Of a stretch of 36,569 nucleotides of DNA, positions 6,903 through 36,569 are shown piece by piece. Under the pieces are notes generated by a model that saw only the letters and a list, made by a program, of their open reading frames with translations, was not told the origin of the DNA and did no database searches. Numbering within the stretch: position 1 is the first letter of the stretch; each line of letters begins with the position of its first letter. The position numbers and the translations under genes are program-made. This DNA is from a virus (Duplodnaviria; Heunggongvirae; Uroviricota; Caudoviricetes): the IMG/VR virus record IMGVR_UViG_2684622554_000001; one strand, written 5' to 3'.

Positions 6903-7016
6903 TTAAAGCATAATGCTGACATTGATATTACTGACGTTTACTGACAAACCACTCGGACTACCGTTTGGATAGCCAAAGAGGGCCAGAACGAGCATGCAGT
7001 AATAGCATTTCTTCAT
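6903..7016 (-). CDS. Putative 37-aa small hydrophobic protein (MKKCYYCMLVLALFGYPNGSPSGLSVNVSNINVSIML)
   Basis: ATG at 7016..7014 preceded by AGGAGG with a 4-nt spacer. Followed by the 6861..6893 terminator. Only strongly signalled ORF in the tin/old slot. No recognisable family. Confidence 0.3.
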   Translation of the reverse strand: MKKCYYCMLVLALFGYPNGSPSGLSVNVSNINVSIML

Positions 7017-7494
7017 ATTGCCTCCTGTAAGTAGAGGGCAACTTCCACCGGTATATGCGCTTCTTAGGTGGAATGACTTTTGAGCGAAGTCTTGCCCTGA
7101 AATAATGCTCTGTTTAAACGCAAAGTGATTTGGCATATCACCGAACAGAGAGCCGGAAAAACACAACATATAGTATGTCGTTGTTTCTAGACATACATTC
7201 TATGTTGTGTAACAAGGGCTTTGCATTAAACATGTTTGAGATTTTATTGATGTAGCTCAAAGTAAAAAACAGAGACTACGGTTGATAAGGTCTTGAAAGC
7301 AATGTAAATTTTTTAAAGTTGCCAATTGCTTAAAAATGTACAGTTGCGGTATGGCGTACTTAAAAAGCTATGCATGCAACAAGTGAATGTTTTTGCATGC
7401 GTTGGGGATGTCCGTTCAGGCTGCGTGCGGTCAGGACTGGTGCGGATCCATAGTATCTATGCAACTGCATTAAAACCGCCCCGTGAAGCGGGCG

Positions 7495-7513
7495 GGCGAG
7501 GCGGGGAAAGCAC
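7495..7513. other. cos site (19-nt P2/P4-type cohesive end GGCGAGGCGGGGAAAGCAC)
   Basis: Exact match to the P2/P4 cohesive-end sequence as recalled. Embedded in a GC-rich palindromic context. Confidence 0.8.
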
Positions 7514-7657: not shown

Positions 7658-8794
7658 ATGACAAGCTATGTTACATGGGCAAATAAAGGTGGAATAGGTA
7701 AATCAACATTATCTTTCCAATTGGCGTTAAAATACGCGAGATTAAACACGAATAAAAAAGTAATCATAATAGATATGAGCCCTCAGTGTGATGTCTCTAG
7801 AATGTTATTGGGGGGAGGGCATTTTAACGGTGAGCAAAAGATCTTGGATAGAATGACCTCTAATCCAAGGTTGACAATTTACCGGTATCTTGAGGCCTGT
7901 GTTAATGATGTTCCTTCTGGGAGGGGATGGCCTGATTCATTATCATACTTAATTGAACCTAATTCTTTTCGAGACGAAAACGCAGAAAAATTGCCTGATA
8001 ATATTAGTATGGTCTGTGGAGATTTCGACTTAGAGAGGGTTACTCATAGTTTAGATAATTTGCCACAACCTCAACCAAGAGGCGGGCGTGTTCCGTCGGG
8101 TGCTCATTACTCAGCATATTTATTGCCACGCACTTTTCTACGGAAAATGGTGGAGGACTTTGAGCGCGAATACAGGGATGTGACAATTTTTATTGATACA
8201 GATCCATATTATTCGGTAGTAACAACACATCTGGGGCTTCTGGCTGCAGACAGGTTGATTTCGGCATACTCTCCTTCATCTCAAGCAAGCCAGTATGCAG
8301 TATATCGTAGCTTAGAGTTTCTATACGATCCTAATTATGGACTGGTGCAAGAGGTTAATACACAGAGAGCAATATATGGTACCCCTTGGTTTGATAGTTT
8401 AAATAATATAATTACAACACCGAATATATCTGTTGCAAATCTTTATATGGTAGTAAGTAACATGAATACGCCTCAGGCTGGAAGAGGACAACCTCCATAC
8501 AGCCAACCCCAAAAACTACATAGACAATCGCAACAAGAAGTTATATCTAGAATTAATGACACATTAAGTAGTTTGGGGATCGCGCATGATTATGTTCATG
8601 ACTATTTATGGGATCTCAAGAGATTAGGTTTGATTTGTGATTATAATGGTTTTGATTTAGCAACAATTCAATTAGGGGAAAATTATGCGGAACCAAGTGA
8701 TGATGGTAATTATTATGTAAATACTACAGGTGGAACACCGATCCAATTATCATCCTATAATGCTAGGATCGAAACTGTTACATCAAAACTATAA
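7658..8794 (+). CDS. Cargo A: ParA/MinD-type P-loop ATPase with about 180-aa C-terminal extension of unknown function
   Basis: 378 aa. Deviant Walker A (K10-GGIGKST17), A' motif VIIIDMSPQ, Walker B-like TIFIDTDP. AT-rich relative to the phage backbone. Own terminator. No adjacent parB-like or centromere partner. Confidence 0.85.
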   Translation: MTSYVTWANKGGIGKSTLSFQLALKYARLNTNKKVIIIDMSPQCDVSRMLLGGGHFNGEQKILDRMTSNPRLTIYRYLEACVNDVPSGRGWPDSLSYLIEPNSFRDENAEKLPDNISMVCGDFDLERVTHSLDNLPQPQPRGGRVPSGAHYSAYLLPRTFLRKMVEDFEREYRDVTIFIDTDPYYSVVTTHLGLLAADRLISAYSPSSQASQYAVYRSLEFLYDPNYGLVQEVNTQRAIYGTPWFDSLNNIITTPNISVANLYMVVSNMNTPQAGRGQPPYSQPQKLHRQSQQEVISRINDTLSSLGIAHDYVHDYLWDLKRLGLICDYNGFDLATIQLGENYAEPSDDGNYYVNTTGGTPIQLSSYNARIETVTSKL

Positions 8795-8866: not shown

Positions 8867-9886
8867 CTATAGGGTGTATTGTCTGAATTTTATTACATTC
8901 TGACCGAGCCAGCCGTTTATTTCCCGAATCCTGTCCTGTAACGGGATAAGCTCATTGCGGACAAAGACCTTTGCCACTTTCTCAATATCACCCAGCGACC
9001 CGACGTTCTCCGGCTTGCCACCCATCAACTGAAAGGGGATGCGGTGTGCGTCCAGCAGGTCAGCGGCGCTGGCTTTTTTGATATTAAAAAAATCATCCTT
9101 CGTTGCCACTTCACTGAGCGGGATAATTTTAATGCCGTCGGCTTTCCCTTGTGGGGCATAGAGAAACAGGTTTTTAAAGTTGTTGCGGCCTTTCGACTTC
9201 ACCATGTTTTCGCGGAGCATTTCGATATCGTTGCGATCCTGCACGGCATCGGTGACGTACATGATGTATCCGGCATGTGCGCCGTTTTCGTAATACTTGC
9301 GGCGGAACAGCGTGGCCGACTCATTCAGCCAGGCAGAATTAAGGGCGCTCAGATATTCCGGCAGGCCGTACAGCTCCTGATTGATATCCGGCTCCAGCAG
9401 GTGAAACACGGAGCCGGGCGTGAAGGCTGTCGGCTCGTTGAAGGACGGCACCCACCAGTAAACATCCTCCTCCACGCCACGGCGGGTATATTTTGCCGGT
9501 GAGGTTTCCAGTCTGATGACCTTACCGGTGGTGCTGTAACGCTTTTCCAGAAACGCATTACCGAACACCAGAAAATCCAGCACAAAGCGGCTGAAATCCT
9601 GCTGGGAAAGCCACGGATGCGGGATAAATGTCGAGGCCAGAATATTGCGTTTGACGTAAATCGGTGAGCTGTGATGCACGGCAGCACGCAGGCTTTTTGC
9701 CAGACCGGTAAAGCTGACCGGTGGCTCATACCATCTGCCGTTACTGATGCACTCGACGTAATCCAGAATGTCACGGCGGTCGAGTACCGGCACCGGCTCA
9801 CCAAAGGTGAATGCCTCCATTTTCGGGGCGCTGGCGGTCATTTTTTTTGCCGCAGGTTGCGGTGTTTTCCCTTTTTTCTTGCTCAT
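8867..9886 (-). CDS. Q: Portal protein gpQ
   Basis: 339 aa with a basic N-terminus MSKKKGKTPQPAAKK. Position next to cos and P. The start codon ATG (9886..9884) lies inside the IS target duplication, and the native SD is now on the far side of the IS. Confidence 0.9.
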   Translation of the reverse strand: MSKKKGKTPQPAAKKMTASAPKMEAFTFGEPVPVLDRRDILDYVECISNGRWYEPPVSFTGLAKSLRAAVHHSSPIYVKRNILASTFIPHPWLSQQDFSRFVLDFLVFGNAFLEKRYSTTGKVIRLETSPAKYTRRGVEEDVYWWVPSFNEPTAFTPGSVFHLLEPDINQELYGLPEYLSALNSAWLNESATLFRRKYYENGAHAGYIMYVTDAVQDRNDIEMLRENMVKSKGRNNFKNLFLYAPQGKADGIKIIPLSEVATKDDFFNIKKASAADLLDAHRIPFQLMGGKPENVGSLGDIEKVAKVFVRNELIPLQDRIREINGWLGQNVIKFRQYTL

Positions 9887-10079
9887 TGCGTATTTTCATG
9901 AAAGGAGATCACTCAATAACTTCCATCGAGATCGGGTAATAACATTTGAACAGATCGCTGAATAACATCGATGGAGATCACTTTTGACTCATTTTGTTAT
10001 TCAGTGATCTCCATCAATGTTATTGGAACTTCACAGGTGTGTTGATCTGTATCTTTTGCCATTCCGGTAAAGGATACCT

Positions 10080-11621
10080 ATGCCAACAGTTCCAATTTCT
10101 ATGAGAAAACTTAAAGAAATTCTTAGGCTTAAATACGGTGTTGGACTCAGCCATCGACAAATTGGTCGTAGTCTTGCAATCTCCCCTTCCGTTGTATCCA
10201 GATATGCTAATCGGGCGGCTCAACTTGGCATAAAGCAGTGGCCCTTACCTACAGGATGGGATGATACAAAACTAAAACATGCGTTCCTTCAGACCCAGGT
10301 TAAGATGAAGAAGCACTCTCTGCCTGACTGGGCTACAGTACACCGGGAACTGCGTAATAAATGCGTGACGCTGCAGCTACTCTGGGAAGAATACTGTGAG
10401 CGTAATCCAGGCGGTTTTTACAGCTATAACCATTACTGCCGGATGTACCGTGAATGGCTCAAAACCACTTCACCATCAATGCGTCAGGTACATAAAGCTG
10501 GCGAAAAACTTTTCGTTGATTACTGTGGACCTACCGTTGGCGTTACCGACCCTGAGACCGGAGAAATAAGAACTGCTCAGGTCATCGTAGCTGTTCTCGG
10601 GGCATCAAGTTACACATGGGCAGAGGCCACCTGGTCTCAGCAGCTTGAAGACTGGGTGATGAGTCATGTTCGCTGCTTCCAGTGGTTGGGTGGCGTTCCT
10701 GAACTTGTTGTTCCGGACAATCTGAAAAGCGCCACATCCAGGGCATGTAAGTATGATCCTGACGTTAACCCTACCTACCAGCAGATGCTTGAGCATTATA
10801 ATGTCGCAGTTTTGCCTGCGCGGCCACGTAAACCGAAAGATAAAGCCAAAGCTGAAGTTGGCGTTCAGGTTGTTGAACGCTGGATCATGGCCCGAATCAG
10901 GCATGAGATCTTCTACAGCCTTGCATCGCTTAATCAGCGCATTCGGGAGTTGCTGGAAAGACTGAATAACAAAATAATGCAGAAGTTGGGTTATTCACGT
11001 GCAGAACTCTTCATCCAGCTTGATAAACCCGCACTGAAGCCTCTTCCTGAAGCCAGTTACAGTTACACCCTGGTGAAGAAAGTCAGAGTTCATGCCGATT
11101 ACCACGTGGAAATCGACAAACATTACTACTCGGTTCCATGTTCGCTGTTAGGCCAGCAACTGGAAGCATGGATCTCCGGAGAACTGGTAAGACTCTTCAA
11201 TCAGGGGCAGGAGGTTGCTGTGCACCCGCGCAAGCGTACTTATGGCTACAGTACCCGCAACGAGCACATGCCTGAAGCTCATCGACAGCATGCCACCTGG
11301 ACGCCAGAGCGTCTTCTGGAATGGGCGGGGCACATAGGCAGTGAAACTCATAGTTATGTGCTTCATATACTGAACTCTCGTCCACATCCGGAACAAAGCT
11401 ATCGCTTCTGCCTTGGACTCCTGAACCTTCATAAAAAATACAGTAAAGCCAGACTTAATGCAGCATGTGCAAGAGCTCTGAAAACAAAGGTATGGCGTCT
11501 GTCAGGTATTAAATCGATCCTGGAAAAAGGTCTGGATAAACAACCTGTTCAGGATCCAAAACCAGATCTGTTATCCACGATGGAACACGAAAACGTACGC
11601 GGCAGTGAGTATTACCACTGA
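10080..11621 (+). CDS. istA: IS21-family transposase IstA
   Basis: 513 aa. N-terminal HTH region and a DDE-type integrase core. Immediately followed by istB. Confidence 0.9.
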   Translation: MPTVPISMRKLKEILRLKYGVGLSHRQIGRSLAISPSVVSRYANRAAQLGIKQWPLPTGWDDTKLKHAFLQTQVKMKKHSLPDWATVHRELRNKCVTLQLLWEEYCERNPGGFYSYNHYCRMYREWLKTTSPSMRQVHKAGEKLFVDYCGPTVGVTDPETGEIRTAQVIVAVLGASSYTWAEATWSQQLEDWVMSHVRCFQWLGGVPELVVPDNLKSATSRACKYDPDVNPTYQQMLEHYNVAVLPARPRKPKDKAKAEVGVQVVERWIMARIRHEIFYSLASLNQRIRELLERLNNKIMQKLGYSRAELFIQLDKPALKPLPEASYSYTLVKKVRVHADYHVEIDKHYYSVPCSLLGQQLEAWISGELVRLFNQGQEVAVHPRKRTYGYSTRNEHMPEAHRQHATWTPERLLEWAGHIGSETHSYVLHILNSRPHPEQSYRFCLGLLNLHKKYSKARLNAACARALKTKVWRLSGIKSILEKGLDKQPVQDPKPDLLSTMEHENVRGSEYYH

Positions 11622-11632
11622 TACGGGATCCA

Positions 11633-12382
11633 ATGATGAATCATCTTTACGAACAACTGACCGCACTTAAACTCACCGGCTTCCGTGATGCGCTTAAAAA
11701 GCAACTTGCTCAACCGGGCACATACCAGGAGCTGGGCTTCGAAGAACGCCTGTCATTACTGACAGCAGAAGAACTAACCTGCCGTGAAAACAGGAAGGCA
11801 GAGCGTCTGATCAAACATGCACGGTTCAGACTTAATGCTGAGTTATCAAAGCTGGATTATCGTAACAATAGAGGGCTGGACAGGGCCCTCATCCGTTCAC
11901 TCAGTCAGGGAAACTGGTTAACCCTGAAACAAAATATTTTACTGACCGGGGCCACCGGCAGCGGTAAAACGTTCCTGGCATGTGCACTTGGTCATAATGC
12001 CTGCCGACAGGGATACAAGGTCTACTATTATCGCCTTAAAGCGCTGATGGAACAGTGCTATCAGGGGCATGCTGATGGAAGATACAGCAAACTTTTGACC
12101 AGGCTGAATAATAGCGATCTGCTGCTTCTGGATGACTGGGGGCTGGAACCTCTCTCATCAGAACAGCGTAGCGACCTGCTGGAAATAGTGGATCTGATGT
12201 ACCAACGAGGCTCAATCATCGTAGTGAGCCAGTTGCCGGTGGAAAACTGGTACAAAATGATCGGAGACTCCACACATGCGGATGCCATCCTAGATCGACT
12301 GGTTCATGGCAGTATCAAGATCGAACTTAAAGGAGAATCAATGCGGAAAATACAATCTCCGTTGACCGAAGGAGATCAGTGA
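11633..12382 (+). CDS. istB: IS21-family ATP-binding helper IstB
   Basis: 249 aa. Walker A GATGSGKTF and Walker B LLLLDDWG, AAA+/DnaC-like. Confidence 0.9.
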   Translation: MMNHLYEQLTALKLTGFRDALKKQLAQPGTYQELGFEERLSLLTAEELTCRENRKAERLIKHARFRLNAELSKLDYRNNRGLDRALIRSLSQGNWLTLKQNILLTGATGSGKTFLACALGHNACRQGYKVYYYRLKALMEQCYQGHADGRYSKLLTRLNNSDLLLLDDWGLEPLSSEQRSDLLEIVDLMYQRGSIIVVSQLPVENWYKMIGDSTHADAILDRLVHGSIKIELKGESMRKIQSPLTEGDQ

Positions 12383-12471
12383 AGGTAATTTAAAAACGGT
12401 TCTGTGAAAGTGACACGAACCGATCTCCATCGATGTTACTCACCGATCTCCTTCACGGTAATACGCACTCA

Positions 12472-14244
12472 TCAGTAAAACTCCAGAATGGTGGATGTCA
12501 GCGGGGTGCTTATACCGGCGGTGAGTGGCTCATTTAACAGGGCGTGCATGGTCGCCCAGGCGAGGTCGGCGTGGCTGGCTTCCTCGCTGCGGCTGGCCTC
12601 ATAGGTGGCACTGCGTCCGCTGCTGGTCATGGTCTTGCGGATAGCCATAAACGAGCTGGTGATGTCGGTGGCGCTGACGTCATATTCCAGACAGCCACGG
12701 CGGATAACGTCTTTTGCCTTGAGCACCATTGCGGTTTTCATTTCCGGCGTGTAGCGGATATCGCGCGCGGCGGGATAGAACGAGCGCACGAGCTGGAACA
12801 CGCCGACACCGAGGCCGGTGGCATCAATACCGATGTATTCGACGTTATATTTTTCGGTGAGTTTGCGGATGGATTCAGCCTGAGTGGCAAAGTCCATGCC
12901 TTTCCACTGGTGACGCTCAAGTATTCTGAATTTGCCACCGGCCACCACCGGCGGTGCCAGCACCACGCATCCGGCGCTGTCGCCACGGTGTGACGGGTCG
13001 TAACCAATCCATACCGGGCGGGAACCGAACGGATTGGCGGCAAAGGGTGCATAGTCTTCCCATTCTTCCAGCGTGTCGACCATGCAGCGTTGCAGCTCCT
13101 CGAACGGGAACACCGACGCCTTGTCGTCAACAAATTCACACATGAACAGGTTTTTAAAATCGTCGGCGCTGTTTTCGCGTTTGAGCTGTTCAATGTCGAA
13201 CAGCGTGCAGCCACCTTTCAGGGCGTCCTCAATGGTGACAATCTGCCGCCACTGGCCGTCTGCACAGAGAAGCCCACCGGCAAGGGCGTTATGACTGACG
13301 TCGATTTCCACGCGTTCGGCGGCGCTGGCGCGTCCCCGGTTGAACAGTTCACCCGACCAGAACGGGTAGGCGTCGTGCGCCAGCGTGGACGGGGTGGAGA
13401 AATAGGTCGAGCGCAGGTGACTCTGTGAGGCCATACCTGATGCCACCTTACGCAGTACCTGAAAATTCGGGATCCAGAAAATCTCATCGACGTACAGGTC
13501 GCCGTTATGGCTCTGCGCGGTGTTGGAGTTGGTGCCGAGAAAAATCAGTTTTGCGCCGTTATTGCCCAGGACAATCGGGTCACCGGTCAGGTCAACGTCA
13601 ACCAGCCGGGCAAAGGCGATGATGTATTCGCGGAACACATACGCCTGCGTTTTACTGGCCGACAGAAAAATCTGGTTATGACCGGTTTTCAGGGCGCGCA
13701 GCAGCGCCTCGCGGGAAAAATAAAACGTCGCGCCAATCTGGCGGGATTTCAGGATATCGCGGATGCGGTGCTCAAGCCCGGCGCGATACCAGTGCAACTG
13801 ATACTCGAAAGACTGCTCAAAGAAAATCTGCTCCAGCTTTTCGATGGCCTCGTCACTGAAAAAATTCTTTTTCGGTTTGCGACGCCCGCCTTTGTTGCGG
13901 TTAGCGACGTTCGGATTAAGGTCTGCCTCGTTGCCGGTCTGACTGTAACGGTTGACCCGTGCCAGTCGTTCAATCTGGCGTCCGAGCAGGTCAATTTCCT
14001 TGAAGTCACCGCCGGTTTTCTGCGGTTTGATGATGAGCTGGGTCAGCCGCGCTTCCAGACTCATTTCGACACGGCTGATGGGGGCAACGCTGTCCCAGCC
14101 GTCGCGCTGTTTCCAGCTCTGCACCGTCGGGCGTTTCATCTGCAACATGGCGGCAATCTGCGGCACGGAAAACCCCTGCCAGTACAGCAGCGCCGCCTGA
14201 CGACGCGGGTCGTGTAAAAGAGTGGTGTCTGTGGTGATGGTCAT
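12472..14244 (-). CDS. P: Terminase large subunit gpP
   Basis: 590 aa from the ATG at 14244 with a GAGG SD (the track start at 14274 is a TTG). Length equals P2 gpP. Stop TGA at 12474..12472 overlaps the right-hand IS target duplication. Confidence 0.95.
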   Translation of the reverse strand: MTITTDTTLLHDPRRQAALLYWQGFSVPQIAAMLQMKRPTVQSWKQRDGWDSVAPISRVEMSLEARLTQLIIKPQKTGGDFKEIDLLGRQIERLARVNRYSQTGNEADLNPNVANRNKGGRRKPKKNFFSDEAIEKLEQIFFEQSFEYQLHWYRAGLEHRIRDILKSRQIGATFYFSREALLRALKTGHNQIFLSASKTQAYVFREYIIAFARLVDVDLTGDPIVLGNNGAKLIFLGTNSNTAQSHNGDLYVDEIFWIPNFQVLRKVASGMASQSHLRSTYFSTPSTLAHDAYPFWSGELFNRGRASAAERVEIDVSHNALAGGLLCADGQWRQIVTIEDALKGGCTLFDIEQLKRENSADDFKNLFMCEFVDDKASVFPFEELQRCMVDTLEEWEDYAPFAANPFGSRPVWIGYDPSHRGDSAGCVVLAPPVVAGGKFRILERHQWKGMDFATQAESIRKLTEKYNVEYIGIDATGLGVGVFQLVRSFYPAARDIRYTPEMKTAMVLKAKDVIRRGCLEYDVSATDITSSFMAIRKTMTSSGRSATYEASRSEEASHADLAWATMHALLNEPLTAGISTPLTSTILEFY

Positions 14245-14417
14245 GAATACCTCGCCGTGATGAATACACGGCAAGGCTACTGAGTCGCGCCCCGCGATTC
14301 GCTAAGGTGCTGTTGTGTCAGTGATAAGCCATCCGGGACTGATGGCGGAGGATGCGCATCGTCGGGAAACTGATGCCGACATGTGACTCCTCTAATCACT
14401 ATTCAGGACTCCTGACA

Positions 14418-15272
14418 ATGGCAAAAAAAGTCTCAAAATTCTTTCGTATCGGCGTTGAGGGTGACACCTGTGACGGGCGTGTCATCAGTGCGCAGGATAT
14501 TCAGGAAATGGCCGAAACCTTTGACCCGCGTGTCTATGGTTGCCGCATTAACCTGGAACATCTGCGCGGCATCCTGCCTGACGGTATTTTTAAGCGTTAT
14601 GGCGATGTGGCCGAACTGAAGGCCGAAAAGATTGACGATGATTCGGCGCTGAAAGGCAAATGGGCGCTGTTTGCGAAAATCACCCCGACCGATGACCTTA
14701 TCGCGATGAACAAGGCCGCGCAGAAGGTCTACACCTCAATGGAAATTCAGCCGAACTTTGCCAACACCGGCAAATGTTATCTGGTGGGTCTGGCCGTCAC
14801 CGATGACCCGGCAAGCCTCGGCACGGAATACCTGGAATTCTGCCGCACGGCAAAACACAACCCCCTGAACCGCTTCAAATTAAGCCCTGAAAACCTGATT
14901 TCAGTGGCAACGCCTGTTGAGCTGGAATTTGAAGACCTGCCTGAAACCGTGTTCACCGCCCTGACCGAAAAGGTGAAATCCATTTTTGGCCGCAAACAGG
15001 CCAGCGATGACGCCCGTCTGAATGACGTGCATGAAGCGGTGACCGCTGTTGCTGAACATGTGCAGGAAAAACTGAGCGCCACTGAGCAGCGACTCGCTGA
15101 GATGGAAACCGCCTTTTCCGCACTTAAGCAGGAGGTGACTGACAGGGCGGATGAAACCAGTCAGGCATTCACCCGCCTGAAAAACAGTCTCGACAGCGCC
15201 GAAAGTCTGACCCAGCAGCGCCGCAGCAAGGCCACCGGCGGTGGCGGTGACGCCCTGATGACGAACTGCTGA
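14418..15272 (+). CDS. O: Capsid scaffold protein gpO
   Basis: 284 aa from MAKKVSKFF, matching the P2 gpO length. The track ORF starts 22 codons upstream. Confidence 0.9.
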   Translation: MAKKVSKFFRIGVEGDTCDGRVISAQDIQEMAETFDPRVYGCRINLEHLRGILPDGIFKRYGDVAELKAEKIDDDSALKGKWALFAKITPTDDLIAMNKAAQKVYTSMEIQPNFANTGKCYLVGLAVTDDPASLGTEYLEFCRTAKHNPLNRFKLSPENLISVATPVELEFEDLPETVFTALTEKVKSIFGRKQASDDARLNDVHEAVTAVAEHVQEKLSATEQRLAEMETAFSALKQEVTDRADETSQAFTRLKNSLDSAESLTQQRRSKATGGGGDALMTNC

Positions 15273-20172: not shown

Positions 20173-20617
20173 GTTTAAGCGTTTTGAAGACCGGCTGGCC
20201 GGACTTATTGAATCGCTGTCACCGTCAGGGCGTCGGCGACTGAGTGCCGAACTGGCGAAACGTCTGCGTCAGAGTCAGCAGCGTCGGGTGATGGCACAGA
20301 AAGCCCCGGACGGCACACCCTACGCGCCACGCCAGCAGCAGAGAGCCAGAAAAAAGACCGGTCGCGTTAAGCGAAAAATGTTTGCGAAACTTATCACCAG
20401 TCGTTTTTTGCATATCCGCGCCAGCCCGGAACAGGCATCAATGGAATTTTACGGCGGGAAGTCACCGAAAATCGCCAGCGTGCATCAGTTTGGTCTGTCG
20501 GAAGAAACCCGGAAAGACGGTAAGAAAATTGATTATCCGGCGCGTCCTTTGCTCGGCTTTACCGGTAAGGATGTGCAGATGATTGAAGAGATTATCCTGG
20601 CTCACCTCGATCGTTAG
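20165..20617 (+). CDS. S: Tail completion protein gpS
   Basis: 150 aa, the same length as P2 gpS. Confidence 0.85.
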   Translation: MNEFKRFEDRLAGLIESLSPSGRRRLSAELAKRLRQSQQRRVMAQKAPDGTPYAPRQQQRARKKTGRVKRKMFAKLITSRFLHIRASPEQASMEFYGGKSPKIASVHQFGLSEETRKDGKKIDYPARPLLGFTGKDVQMIEEIILAHLDR

Positions 20618-20821: not shown

Positions 20822-21565
20822 TTATCTGGTTAAATAAGTGAGCTCACTCTCTTTAGGTATTAGCTGAGTGTCTCCTCCCCATTCGTTCATGATGTTTTTT
20901 CTCGCATTCCAGTATTCTTGGTAAGTATCTTGATGAACAGTGTAGATACTTGCTAAAAGCCAGTGTTGATACTTAAGAGTCGTGTATTGGTATTCTTCTA
21001 TTATCGGTAAAATGAATAAGTTTTTTTGCTTTAGTGAGATTAAATATTCTTTTGTTTGTTTGGTGGTTCTGTCATTGTTTAAGATTCTTTCAATCTTAAA
21101 TGAAAAGCCGTGCATGTTTATATTTCTTTGGAGGTGCATGAATGATGATATTGATGGGGCGATCATGTTTTGATGCGTCAGGATGTTTCTTAAATCCTCC
21201 ATTAATTTTATTACTGGATTATTTCGGAATTCATGATTGATGAATGCCTCTGATTTGATTTTAATGTCGGCAATATTTAATGCTTTTGTTTTAAGTAGGT
21301 TGCGCGTTGAATCTCTAAATGATAATGCTGAAGATATATAATTGAAAAGGTGTCTTGATATGTTTAAATGTTCTTTTTTAAATTTGTCTCTGTTAAATGA
21401 ATGACGGGAAACAATGTCAGGGGAGTTGAATTTGCTTAATTCATGTTGGACAACTTCGTAATTGGCAATATGCATATGTCCAAGTAAATTGGTGTCGGAG
21501 ATTTTTAAATACTCTTGGTGGGCGATGGTGTCTTTTTGATTTTCCCAGATTTGATATTTATCCAT
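20822..21565 (-). CDS. Cargo B: AT-rich hypothetical protein with two Rx4H motifs (possible HEPN-type or abortive-infection-like)
   Basis: 247 aa on the strand opposite the tail operon. Strongly AT-rich. Own SD (AAGGA). R126-x4-H131 and R147-x4-H152. Confidence 0.8.
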   Translation of the reverse strand: MDKYQIWENQKDTIAHQEYLKISDTNLLGHMHIANYEVVQHELSKFNSPDIVSRHSFNRDKFKKEHLNISRHLFNYISSALSFRDSTRNLLKTKALNIADIKIKSEAFINHEFRNNPVIKLMEDLRNILTHQNMIAPSISSFMHLQRNINMHGFSFKIERILNNDRTTKQTKEYLISLKQKNLFILPIIEEYQYTTLKYQHWLLASIYTVHQDTYQEYWNARKNIMNEWGGDTQLIPKESELTYLTR

Positions 21566-24073: not shown

Positions 24074-25615
24074 ATGAGCACAAAATTCAGAACCGTTATC
24101 ACCACTGCCGGTGCAGCAAAGCTGGCAGCGGCAACCGCGCCGGGAGGGCGGAAGGTCAACATTACCACGATGGCCGTCGGGGATGGCGGTGGTAAATTGC
24201 CTGTCCCGGATGCCGGACAGACCGGGCTTATCCATGAAGTCTGGCGACATGCGCTGAACAAAATCAGCCAGGACAAACGAAACAGTAATTATATTATCGC
24301 AGAGCTGGTTATTCCGCCGGAGGTGGGCGGTTTCTGGATGCGTGAGCTTGGCCTGTACGATGATGCGGGAACATTAATTGCCGTGGCGAACATGGCCGAA
24401 AGTTATAAGCCAGCTCTTGCCGAAGGCTCAGGGCGTTCGCAGACCTGTCGCATGGTCATCATCGTCAGCAGTGTGGCCTCAGTGGCGCTGACCATTGACA
24501 CCACAACGGTGATGGCGACGCAGGATTACGTTGATGACAAAATTGCAGAGCATGAACAGTCACGACGTCACCCGGACGCCTCGCTGACCGCAAAAGGTTT
24601 TACTCAGTTAAGCAGTGCGATCAACAGCACGTCTGAAACACTGGCCGCAACGCCGAAAGCGGTAAAGGCCGCGTATGATCTTGCTAACGGGAAATACACT
24701 GCGCAGGATGCCACCACAGCGCGAAAAGGCCTTGTCCAGCTCAGTAGCGCCACCAACAGCACGTCTGAAACGCTCGCCGCTACACCAAAAGCGGTAAAGG
24801 CAGCATATGACCTTGCTAACGGGAAATACACTGCACAGGACGCCACCACAGCGCGAAAAGGTCTTGTCCAGCTCAGTAGCGCCACCAACAGCGATTCTGA
24901 AACGCTTGCAGCAACGCCAAAGGCGGTTAAGACAGCGTATGACCTTGCTAACGGGAAATACACTGCGCAGGATGCCACCACGGCGCGAAAAGGCCTTGTC
25001 CAGCTCAGTAGCGCCACCAACAGTGATTCTGAAACGCTGGCCGCAACACCAAAAGCAGTGAAGTCTGCCTATGACAATGCTGAAAAACGTCTTCAGAAAG
25101 ATCAGAACGGTGCGGATATTCCGGGAAAGGATACCTTCACGAAAAATATCGGTGCCTGTCGTGCTTATAGCGGCGCTTTGAGCACTGAAGCCGGAAACTG
25201 GACAACCGCTCAGTTTATTGAATGGCTGGATTCCCGTGGTGCATTTAATCATCCGTACTGGATGTGCAAATGTTCATGGTCATACGGCAATAATAAAATT
25301 ATTACCGATACTGGCTGTGGAACTATTCATCTTGCAGGTTGCGTTATTGAGGTTATGGGTAATAAAGGTGCCATGACCATCCGTGTAACAACACCAAGCA
25401 CTTCCACCGGAGGCGGCACCACTAACGCTCAATTCACTTATATTAATCATGGTGATGCTTATGCTCCTGGCTGGCGACGAGACTACAACACGAAAAACCA
25501 GCAGCCTGCATTTGCTTTAGGGAAAACAGGAAGCACTGTCGGAAATGATAAAGCTGTTGGCTGGAACTGGAATAGCGGGTCTATCAAGCAAATATTGGTG
25601 GCGCATCGACATTAA
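24074..25615 (+). CDS. H: Tail fiber protein gpH (N-terminal and repeat region); likely continues into 25630..26001 through a frameshift
   Basis: N-terminal about 180 aa resemble the P2 gpH N-terminus (MSxKFRTVITTAGAAKLAAATAPG...). GAGGA SD. Ends abruptly at ...LVAHRH. Confidence 0.85.
   Translation: MSTKFRTVITTAGAAKLAAATAPGGRKVNITTMAVGDGGGKLPVPDAGQTGLIHEVWRHALNKISQDKRNSNYIIAELVIPPEVGGFWMRELGLYDDAGTLIAVANMAESYKPALAEGSGRSQTCRMVIIVSSVASVALTIDTTTVMATQDYVDDKIAEHEQSRRHPDASLTAKGFTQLSSAINSTSETLAATPKAVKAAYDLANGKYTAQDATTARKGLVQLSSATNSTSETLAATPKAVKAAYDLANGKYTAQDATTARKGLVQLSSATNSDSETLAATPKAVKTAYDLANGKYTAQDATTARKGLVQLSSATNSDSETLAATPKAVKSAYDNAEKRLQKDQNGADIPGKDTFTKNIGACRAYSGALSTEAGNWTTAQFIEWLDSRGAFNHPYWMCKCSWSYGNNKIITDTGCGTIHLAGCVIEVMGNKGAMTIRVTTPSTSTGGGTTNAQFTYINHGDAYAPGWRRDYNTKNQQPAFALGKTGSTVGNDKAVGWNWNSGSIKQILVAHRH
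24608..25075 (+). repeat. In-frame tandem repeat inside H: 132-bp (44-aa) unit, about 3.5 copies
   Basis: LSSA[TI]NS[TD]SETLAATPKAVK[AT]AYDLANGKYTAQDATTARKGLVQ repeated. Causes long spurious antisense ORFs in the track. Confidence 0.9.
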
Positions 25616-35207: not shown

Positions 35208-36569
35208 TCACTTACCGTGGGGGTTACGCGTGGTTTCCCCGGAGAAATTACGCATCAGCAGCGCGTAATTTAGCTCAAGATCCTGCGGCACCGGGAGCCA
35301 CACAGTATAACCATCGCCTGGTGCGACCGGCATAGCTTCACCTTTGGCGTTTTCCATGTGCTCAAGGGTAAAGTTAATGTTGCCTTGCGGCGTCATTAGC
35401 TCAAGGCTGTCGCCAACGGAGAATTTATTTTTCACCGCTACCGCCGCGAGGTCCCCCTTGCGCTCACCGGTAAACTCACCAACAAACTGCTGGCGGTCAG
35501 AAACTGAATAACCGTATTCGTAGTTCTGATAATCGTCGTGAGTATGACGACGCAGGAAACCTTCGGTATAGCCACGATGCGCCAGACCTTCCAGAGTTTC
35601 CAGCAGGCTGGTATCGAACGGTTTGCCCGCAGCGGCGTCATCGATAGCTTTACGGTAAACCTGCGCGGTGCGTGCGCAATAGTAGAAAGATTTGGTACGG
35701 CCTTCGATTTTCAGCGAATGCACGCCCATTTTGGTCAGGCGTTCAACATGGGCGATGGCGCGCAGATCTTTCGAGTTCATGATGTAAGTGCCGTGCTCAT
35801 CTTCAAACGCGGTCATATACTCGCCCGGACGCTGGGCTTCTTCGATCATAAACACTTTGTCGGTTGGCGCGCCGATACCCAGCGTCGGCTCAACATTTTG
35901 CACCGGAATCGGCTCGTACTTGTGTACGATGTTGCCAACGTCATCTTCTTTCCCTTCCTGGACGTTGTACTCCCAGCGGCAGGCGTTGGTGCAGGTGCCC
36001 TGGTTCGGGTCGCGCTTGTTGATATAGCCAGAGAGCAGGCAGCGACCGGAGTAGGCCATGCACAGCGCGCCGTGAACGAAGATTTCGATTTCCATATCCG
36101 GCACCTGATTGCGGATCTCTTCAATCTCTTCCAGTGACAGTTCGCGAGAGAGGATCACGCGGGTCAGGCCCATTTGCTGCCAGAATTTCACCGTCGCCCA
36201 GTTCACGGCGTTAGCCTGTACCGAGAGATGGATCGGCATTTCAGGGAAGTGCTCACGCACCAGCATAATCAGCCCTGGATCGGACATAATCAGCGCATCC
36301 GGCCCCATTTCCACCACCGGTTTCAGGTCACGGATAAAGGTTTTCAGCTTGGCGTTGTGCGGTGCAATGTTGACCACGACATAAAACTTTTTCCCCAGCG
36401 CGTGGGCTTCGTTAATGCCGAGTTGAAGATTTTCGTGGTTGAATTCGTTGTTGCGCACACGCAGGGAGTAACGCGGCTGGCCCGCATAAACAGCATCTGC
36501 GCCATAAGCGAAAGCGTAACGCATATTTTTCAGCGTTCCCGCCGGGGAAAGGAGTTCCGGTTTAAACAT
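35208..36569 (-). CDS. yegQ: Peptidase U32-family protein YegQ/TrhP (tRNA hydroxylation)
   Basis: 453 aa, MFKPELLSPAGTLKNMRYAFAYGADAVYAG. Start codon at the extreme window edge (36569..36567). Host gene next to cyaR, as in E. coli. Confidence 0.9.
   Translation of the reverse strand: MFKPELLSPAGTLKNMRYAFAYGADAVYAGQPRYSLRVRNNEFNHENLQLGINEAHALGKKFYVVVNIAPHNAKLKTFIRDLKPVVEMGPDALIMSDPGLIMLVREHFPEMPIHLSVQANAVNWATVKFWQQMGLTRVILSRELSLEEIEEIRNQVPDMEIEIFVHGALCMAYSGRCLLSGYINKRDPNQGTCTNACRWEYNVQEGKEDDVGNIVHKYEPIPVQNVEPTLGIGAPTDKVFMIEEAQRPGEYMTAFEDEHGTYIMNSKDLRAIAHVERLTKMGVHSLKIEGRTKSFYYCARTAQVYRKAIDDAAAGKPFDTSLLETLEGLAHRGYTEGFLRRHTHDDYQNYEYGYSVSDRQQFVGEFTGERKGDLAAVAVKNKFSVGDSLELMTPQGNINFTLEHMENAKGEAMPVAPGDGYTVWLPVPQDLELNYALLMRNFSGETTRNPHGK

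Follow-up and report, generated by a model that had tools for sequence, protein, structure and literature searches.

A viral stretch of 36,569 nucleotides (IMG/VR record IMGVR_UViG_2684622554_000001, hereafter the window) was analyzed, and a complete copy of the insertion sequence (IS) ISEc12 was found exactly on the overlap between the stop codon of gene P and the start codon of gene Q in a P2-like prophage of Escherichia coli. P codes for the large terminase subunit and Q for the portal protein. The probable outcome, judged from the sequence, is a severe loss of portal protein expression that leaves the prophage non-productive; we give this reading a probability of about 0.7. The same junction is occupied by ISEc12 in other E. 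coli genomes, and an independent recurrence of the insertion there is very likely. The window is 100% identical to accession CP013837.1 over a locus of 13,020 nt (L049) and again from position 20334 to its end (locus L062). This accession is the genome of the E. coli ST131 fimH22 strain JJ1897, obtained by single-molecule sequencing (PMC4933990).

ISEc12 Lies Exactly Between P and Q

The features of the insertion and its two neighboring genes are as follows.

9887-12467, plus strand: complete ISEc12, IS21 family, 2581 bp, ends 5'-TG...CA-3', bounds set by comparison with the empty site
10080-11621, plus strand: istA, DDE transposase, 513 amino acids; NF033546 ("IS21 family transposase") 310 bits; Pfam rve and Mu-transpos_C_2
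11633-12382, plus strand: istB, AAA+ helper ATPase, 249 amino acids; NF038214 270 bits; PF01695 (IstB_IS21) 227 bits
9887-10024: left terminal region, imperfect inverted repeat and four GATCTCCATCGATG-type motifs (9897-9910, 9920-9933, 9966-9979, 10006-10019)
12364-12467: right terminal region, inverted repeat and motifs at 12364-12377 and 12422-12435, with a weaker copy at 12445-12461
9882-9886: left copy of the target duplication CTCAT, ATGAG on the minus strand, holding the Q start codon
12468-12472: right copy of CTCAT; base 12472 is the last base (A on the minus strand) of the P stop TGA
8867-9886, minus strand: Q, portal protein, 339 amino acids, open reading frame (ORF) intact; TIGR01540 252 bits; PF04860
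12472-14244, minus strand: P, large terminase (ATPase) subunit, 590 amino acids, intact; Pfam Terminase_5, Terminase_6N and Terminase_6C
12481-12484, minus strand: GGAG, the original Shine-Dalgarno sequence of Q, 2.6 kb from Q here but 8 nt before the ATG when the site is empty

An earlier reading made from the sequence alone (the sequence-only reading) had placed an IS21-family element at the P/Q junction, and the window indeed holds a full member of that family, namely ISEc12. The span first given, 9882-12472, comprises the IS together with both copies of the duplication, and the IS proper runs from 9887 to 12467. Its name, which that reading had proposed to look up, follows from 100% identity over all 2581 bp to ST131 copies annotated by PGAP as "IS21-like element ISEc12". 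Two consecutive genes, istA and istB, are present as in other IS21 elements, and their products exceed the cut-offs of NF033546 (160 bits) and NF038214 (200 bits); in the PGAP annotation of the identical copies, istB is 248 amino acids long. The termini in the window are TGCGTATT...AATACGCA. The repeat arrays that had been noticed at the IS ends were recovered by a motif scan, in which 6 of the 8 window-wide matches to GATCTCCATCGATG (with at most 3 mismatches) fell inside the ends, at 9897-10019 and 12364-12435, and a separate repeat analysis gave the same terminal pattern. Both ends carry the imperfect inverted repeats and internal repeated motifs of an IS21 element. The target duplication measures 5 bp here and 5-7 bp at 18 other ISEc12 sites, within the 4-8 bp of the family. 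Of 5,426 complete E. coli genomes, 1,909 carry ISEc12, which occupies 5,553 places in all. A genuine ISEc12 insertion at the P/Q junction is practically beyond doubt.

The 5-bp direct repeat CTCAT that had been described, read as ATGAG with the Q start on the minus strand, lies at 9882-9886 and 12468-12472. On that strand, the P stop TGA occupies 12474-12472, the Q start ATG 9886-9884, and the P start ATG begins at 14244. The duplication of CTCAT means that P retains its TGA stop and Q its ATG start. Both genes had been taken to be intact, and the profile matches agree with this. P aligned to its relatives without gaps, and Q was 97-99% identical to its relatives, the only difference being a naturally variant C-terminus. 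The identical 339-amino-acid Q also occurs in 246 blocks of a public assembly collection, and among the matches listed, 7 of 10 have an uninterrupted P-Q arrangement.

When 9887-12472 was deleted in silico, the minus strand read ...CTGGAGTTTTACTGATGAGCAAG, with the P stop TGA overlapping the Q start ATG in the sequence CTGATGAG. This is the overlap that the sequence-only reading had expected after removal of the IS and one repeat. Among the 5,426 complete E. coli genomes, 1,593 have this 1200-bp reconstruction of the empty site as one unbroken stretch, the best of them matching it at 99.7%. In annotated relatives, the end of P is the beginning of Q, and the two genes abut in every matching isolated P2-like phage. 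A large natural P-Q spacer, which would have spoken against an insertion, was not found in the complete E. coli genomes, the annotated relatives or the isolated P2-like phages.

The Junction Has Been Hit Repeatedly

A query made of Q and the left end of the IS detected six other complete E. coli genomes with ISEc12 beside Q in the same orientation. In five of the six, the IS lies exactly at the junction; in the sixth, DETEC-S565, it lies about 70 bp inside Q with the duplication GTGAATG. A right-junction query returned the same six genomes and strain S6. K-mers of the junction insertion are TTCTTGCTCAT(C)TGCGTATTTTC and GGTAATACGCACTCATCAGTAAAAC. The insertions in and around the start of Q are distributed as follows, in window coordinates.

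9779-9887: Q 5' end and junction stretch receiving ISEc12 in other genomes; junction hits L001-L004, plus orientation, 5- or 6-bp duplication
9807-9813, plus orientation: insertion inside Q in DETEC-S565
9779-9784, plus orientation: insertion inside Q at IMG/VR locus L030
about 9736, reverse orientation: insertion inside Q in CREC8, just outside the 9779-9887 stretch
about 700 nt into Q, plus orientation: insertion inside Q in strain S6

The duplication is CTCAT in the window and in strain 98201, and CTCATC in OkiPb01678, the O25:H4 strain 18044 and MS7163; in the CTCATC cases, the right IS end joins at an unchanged position while the left end is shifted onward by one base. OkiPb01712 is known from its matching hits and was pooled with OkiPb01678 as one event. 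The junction hits L001-L004 include 98201 and OkiPb01678 (L001/L002). The IS copies differ by 0-3 bases in 2581 (0-0.1%), whereas the flanks (1000 nt of Q and 1700 nt of P) show 23-37 differences (1.5-3.7%), except that the Q side of 98201 and OkiPb01678 is identical over 1000 nt. Where the flanks differ, the nearest difference lies 26-195 nt from the IS on the Q side and 44-281 nt on the P side. For MS7163, the 1200 nt reconstructed without the IS have a 100% identical counterpart in the uninterrupted site of IHE3034, which lies at a similar coordinate in the chromosome; for strain 18044, five uninterrupted genomes match the reconstruction at 100%. The flanks of the window also resemble an empty site (99.7%) more closely than those of any other prophage with the IS. 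In addition, the cargo genes between A and Q vary among the prophages hit at or near the junction.

Diverged flanks around a near-identical IS, two duplication lengths and exact empty-site counterparts indicate independent events. From these comparisons, we count at least three insertions, and probably five, at the same nucleotide, the independent hits on one position that mark a hot spot. Descent from one ancestral event, whether disseminated by a viable phage with the IS or passed between prophages through homologous recombination, would account for the shared position and orientation in six genomes (including the source of the window) and for the identical Q-side flank of 98201 and OkiPb01678. 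However, it is highly improbable, and these data largely refute it. It would in each case demand crossovers only tens of bases away from the IS, given differences as near as 26 and 44 nt, and would leave the 5- and 6-bp duplications unexplained; it also conflicts with the contrast between flank and IS divergence and with the empty-site counterparts of MS7163 and 18044. Several recent independent insertions in turn point to an ISEc12 that is active in transposition.

The wider scans were negative. No match to a 44-nt left-end pattern was found in species-representative genomes, and none to the junction pattern in metagenome contigs, where short-read assemblies probably break at the IS. The literature searched contained no report of ISEc12 in P2-like prophages or of a P/Q hot spot. 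The recurrence of ISEc12 at the P/Q site is what is new here, a natural hot spot of modest interest.

Expected Effect on Portal Expression

A resident ISEc12, equipped with IstA and IstB, transposed recently into the P2-like prophage of the ST131-H22 strain JJ1897. The staggered 5-bp cut fell on CTCAT, in which the Q start codon and the final base of the P stop both lie. For the effect on the late operon, we propose the following. Q was severed from its native GGAG, and its translational coupling to P would be lost. Late-promoter transcripts starting upstream of P would have 2.58 kb of antisense, untranslatable IS RNA to traverse, with Rho-dependent polarity as a result. Portal synthesis would be lost or strongly lowered, and capsids would not be assembled or filled, while lysogeny functions and cargo such as a Shedu gene would persist in the prophage.

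Several features of the interrupted junction are consistent with this. The sequence before the Q ATG is now the left end of the IS (...GAAAATACGCA-ATG; in RNA ...CUCCUUUCAUGAAAAUACGCA-AUG), and no Shine-Dalgarno sequence precedes the ATG with the IS in place; the native GGAG is at 12484-12481, on the far side of the IS, as had been claimed. A minus-strand scan of 9600-14700, including the IS, detected no sigma-70-like promoter. In the 2.58 kb of antisense IS RNA, each frame contains 28-52 stop codons, and nine windows are rich in C and poor in G. IS insertions in operons cause Rho-dependent polarity on downstream genes, and such polarity is expected here because the antisense IS RNA is rich in stops and in C-rich, G-poor stretches. 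No RNA structure was predicted at the Q start, with or without the IS.

Two results weigh against a complete loss of portal. Terminator-like minus-strand hairpins inside the IS are not commoner than in shuffled sequence, and the new Q leader is AU-rich and unstructured, so some initiation without a Shine-Dalgarno sequence is possible on read-through RNA. Low-level Q translation from such RNA may therefore occur. The insertion might even be tolerated, if read-through or IS-internal transcription combined with this kind of initiation gave enough portal, the prophage remaining productive and ISEc12 being mere cargo. The intact P and Q ORFs and the unstructured leader agree with that possibility, as does the length of the prophage with its IS (about 34.4 kb). 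The P2 genome is 33.6 kb, and capsid capacity is not the obstacle since the two sizes are close. Moreover, four isolated phages of about 52 kb (PhiR12_1, PhiR12_2, PhiR12_2_star and PhiR12_4; PV340549-PV340553) carry a 100%-identical ISEc12 near a tail-fiber assembly gene, which indicates that ISEc12 can travel in viable virions. Nevertheless, we regard a tolerated insertion as unlikely. ISEc12 was present in 0 of 108 matching P2-like phage records, and no identical IS-bearing prophage was seen across unrelated hosts, each insertion lying in its own flank haplotype; the lack of a promoter-like site and of a Shine-Dalgarno sequence before Q and the 2.58 kb of untranslated RNA upstream of it also stand against enough portal being made.

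Severe loss of portal expression remains the reading that we prefer; the failure of portal expression and packaging supposed by the sequence-only reading is plausible. Annotators would do best to treat the window prophage, and similar ones in at least six complete genomes, as probably non-productive, though annotation pipelines call their packaging genes intact. The insertion adds one more case of IS elements disabling prophages.

Choice of the Target Site

Structure-based target choice by IstB is our leading hypothesis for the cause of the hot spot. In IS21, IstB decamers bend the target DNA, and kink-prone sequences are hot spots (PMC11208146). A sharp site without a sequence consensus, as at P/Q, fits such a shape-based selector. 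The first 65 nt of Q, with tracts of T8, T4 and T6, abut the junction, and in an AA-wedge model their predicted curvature ranks at the 99.5th percentile for the prophage. The T-tracts near the junction lie at 9841-9880, and CTCATCAG is a further sequence of the P/Q junction. The S-shape index at the junction is unremarkable (67th percentile). Across 18 ISEc12 sites, the duplications are only slightly GC-rich, and predicted curvature dips a little at their center.

On the plus strand at 9848-9873, antisense to Q and about 18 nt from the insertion point, lies a GC-rich hairpin with a T-run behind it, TGCCGCAGGTTGCGGTG TTTTCCCTTT. It forms part of the strongly curved segment.

The tests gave no support to a mechanism for the hot spot. 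No consensus emerged from the 18 distinct ISEc12 sites. At the 16 ISEc12 sites in P2-like prophages, predicted curvature was not enriched (P = 0.37), and curvature as a demonstrated cause of the hot spot was rejected on this basis; the model gave no general association for ISEc12 sites, and the link with IstB bending is put forward as a hypothesis. Neither a position weight matrix of the terminal repeats nor matching of the IS tips revealed mimicry of the IS ends near the site beyond chance. Neither consensus nor curvature nor an IS-end mimic emerged as the target determinant that a hot spot would be expected to have. The orientation bias rests on few events: all five insertions at the junction share it, as do 8 of 9 once those four in the body of Q are counted in. 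No reverse-orientation ISEc12 was found at the junction, nor was a same-orientation copy found in the last 300 nt of P, and the bias at the junction is suggestive.

Selection rather than target preference might also produce recurrence, if hosts that disarm a prophage without gene loss were favored or retained. The insertion does spare every ORF, including defense cargo and lysogeny genes, and loss of the portal and of packaging would stop virion production. Still, selection appears improbable as the explanation. The databases also contain prophages in which Q, A, tail genes or DNA beside cos have been destroyed by insertions, so other sites have not been purged, and single-nucleotide precision is hard to obtain by selection. 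To our knowledge, P2-like prophages are generally not SOS-inducible, and the benefit of disarming one would be small for that reason.

Our boldest proposal, that the P/Q overlap is a nucleotide-precise, orientation-biased ISEc12 target through which prophages are recurrently disarmed, possibly to the advantage of the host, with genes kept and virions lost, is quite doubtful at present. If it were true, immunity and defense cargo would be kept, precise excision could in principle re-arm the phage, and the IS21 field would gain a naturally occurring sequence for experiments on structure-based target selection. Recent cryo-EM work has reportedly left IS21 target recognition at the level of "bendable DNA". 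The roughly 150 bp around CTCAT offer a defined natural substrate for target recognition by IstA and IstB.

ISEc12 at Other Sites in P2-Like Prophages

Elsewhere in P2-like prophages, ISEc12 occupies scattered sites in both orientations. In E. coli WP7-S17-ESBL-01 (L007, 10118-12697), an ISEc12 with a frameshifted istB lies 13 nt from the cos sequence GGCGAGGCGGGGAAAGCAC with the duplication GCGGT, and may disturb packaging recognition in that prophage. In the E. coli type strain ATCC 11775 (L006, 7157-9737), ISEc12 splits an AAA-family ATPase cargo gene with the duplication CTTTGC; this P2-like prophage occupies the same yegR-yegQ site as the one in the window. In addition, two draft E. coli genomes (L050 and L058) hold P2-like remnants in which the 3' 901 nt of P adjoin the tail gene I, which implies a large internal deletion that begins midway through P and takes in the head, lysis and baseplate genes.

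The Prophage and Its Assembly

The remaining features of the prophage are listed below.

660-35063: P2-like (Peduovirus) prophage, between yegR (1-318) and yegQ (35208-36569, minus strand)
660 and 35050: att core GTGTAAGGGAGATT, at both prophage ends
7495-7513: 19-nt cos sequence, the same as that named above for L007
26822-28048, plus strand: Shedu defense gene SduA, full-length, between the tail-fiber assembly and sheath genes; PADLOC PDLC04067, E = 1e-219
7658-8794, plus strand; 6903-7169, minus strand; 20822-21565, minus strand: cargo ORFs, no PADLOC matches
24589-25075: direct repeats inside the tail-fiber gene H, recurring about every 132 nt, seen as offset self-matches in the alignment to relatives

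The prophage has the P2-type cos and att core, both matched to P2 reference sequences. One cargo ORF codes for a ParA/CbiA-like P-loop ATPase of 378 amino acids and lies between cos (7495) and Q; another, of 247 amino acids, lies between the tail genes S and V and had no family match.

Compared with close relatives, the window has 1-nt deletions in runs of G or C at about 23030, 25576, 26697, 28213, 29728, 30625 and 34948. Apparent frameshifts disrupt J (baseplate), H (tail fiber), FII (tail tube) and T (tape measure). Against a 99.4% identical relative, each of these four lesions is a 1-nt deletion in a G run; the one in J (about 23030) is in a short GGG run, and is an AA pair against more distant relatives. 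They are probably sequencing errors of the early (2016) PacBio assembly of JJ1897, which we favor because homopolymer deletions are typical of PacBio consensus errors. The JJ1897 assembly was absent from the RefSeq set searched. A decaying prophage, as the frameshifts might suggest, was rejected as unproven, since single-nucleotide homopolymer deletions fit consensus errors. If the frameshifts were real, the prophage would be multiply defective.

With such indel errors in a PacBio-only genome, one might suspect that the IS at P/Q is itself an artefact of assembly. This has a negligible probability, given a perfect 5-bp duplication around a full-length IS, the same architecture in five other complete genomes, and reads long enough to span a 2.6-kb repeat easily.

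Comparison With Known Systems

The window prophage shares with the P-Q late operon of P2 and other Peduovirus members its gene order, the P-stop/Q-start overlap (restored in the empty site), the 19-nt cos and the att core. As in these members, Q and P are co-oriented and divergent from O-N-M-L, and the stop/start overlap is present where the operon is intact. The two genes are 2586 bp apart in the window prophage, whereas they abut in P2 and Peduovirus.

As an IS insertion in a prophage, the event is ordinary and belongs to the classical polar type; what is special is the exact landing on a stop/start overlap. IS1 and IS2 in gal and lac likewise lie between or within co-transcribed genes, and transcriptional polarity is expected to silence what lies downstream. 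The P/Q insertion differs from these in that it falls exactly on the stop/start overlap and removes a Shine-Dalgarno sequence and translational coupling while both coding sequences stay complete.

The closest counterpart for the element itself is the ISEc12 in tssM of EC958 (ST131 clade C), which likewise gives a 5-bp duplication (PMC10711316). The two cases are alike in the element, the duplication length, the istA/istB layout and the terminal repeats. However, the tssM insertion is one ancestral event that breaks an ORF, whereas at the P/Q site no ORF is broken, several independent events are indicated, and two translationally coupled genes are separated.

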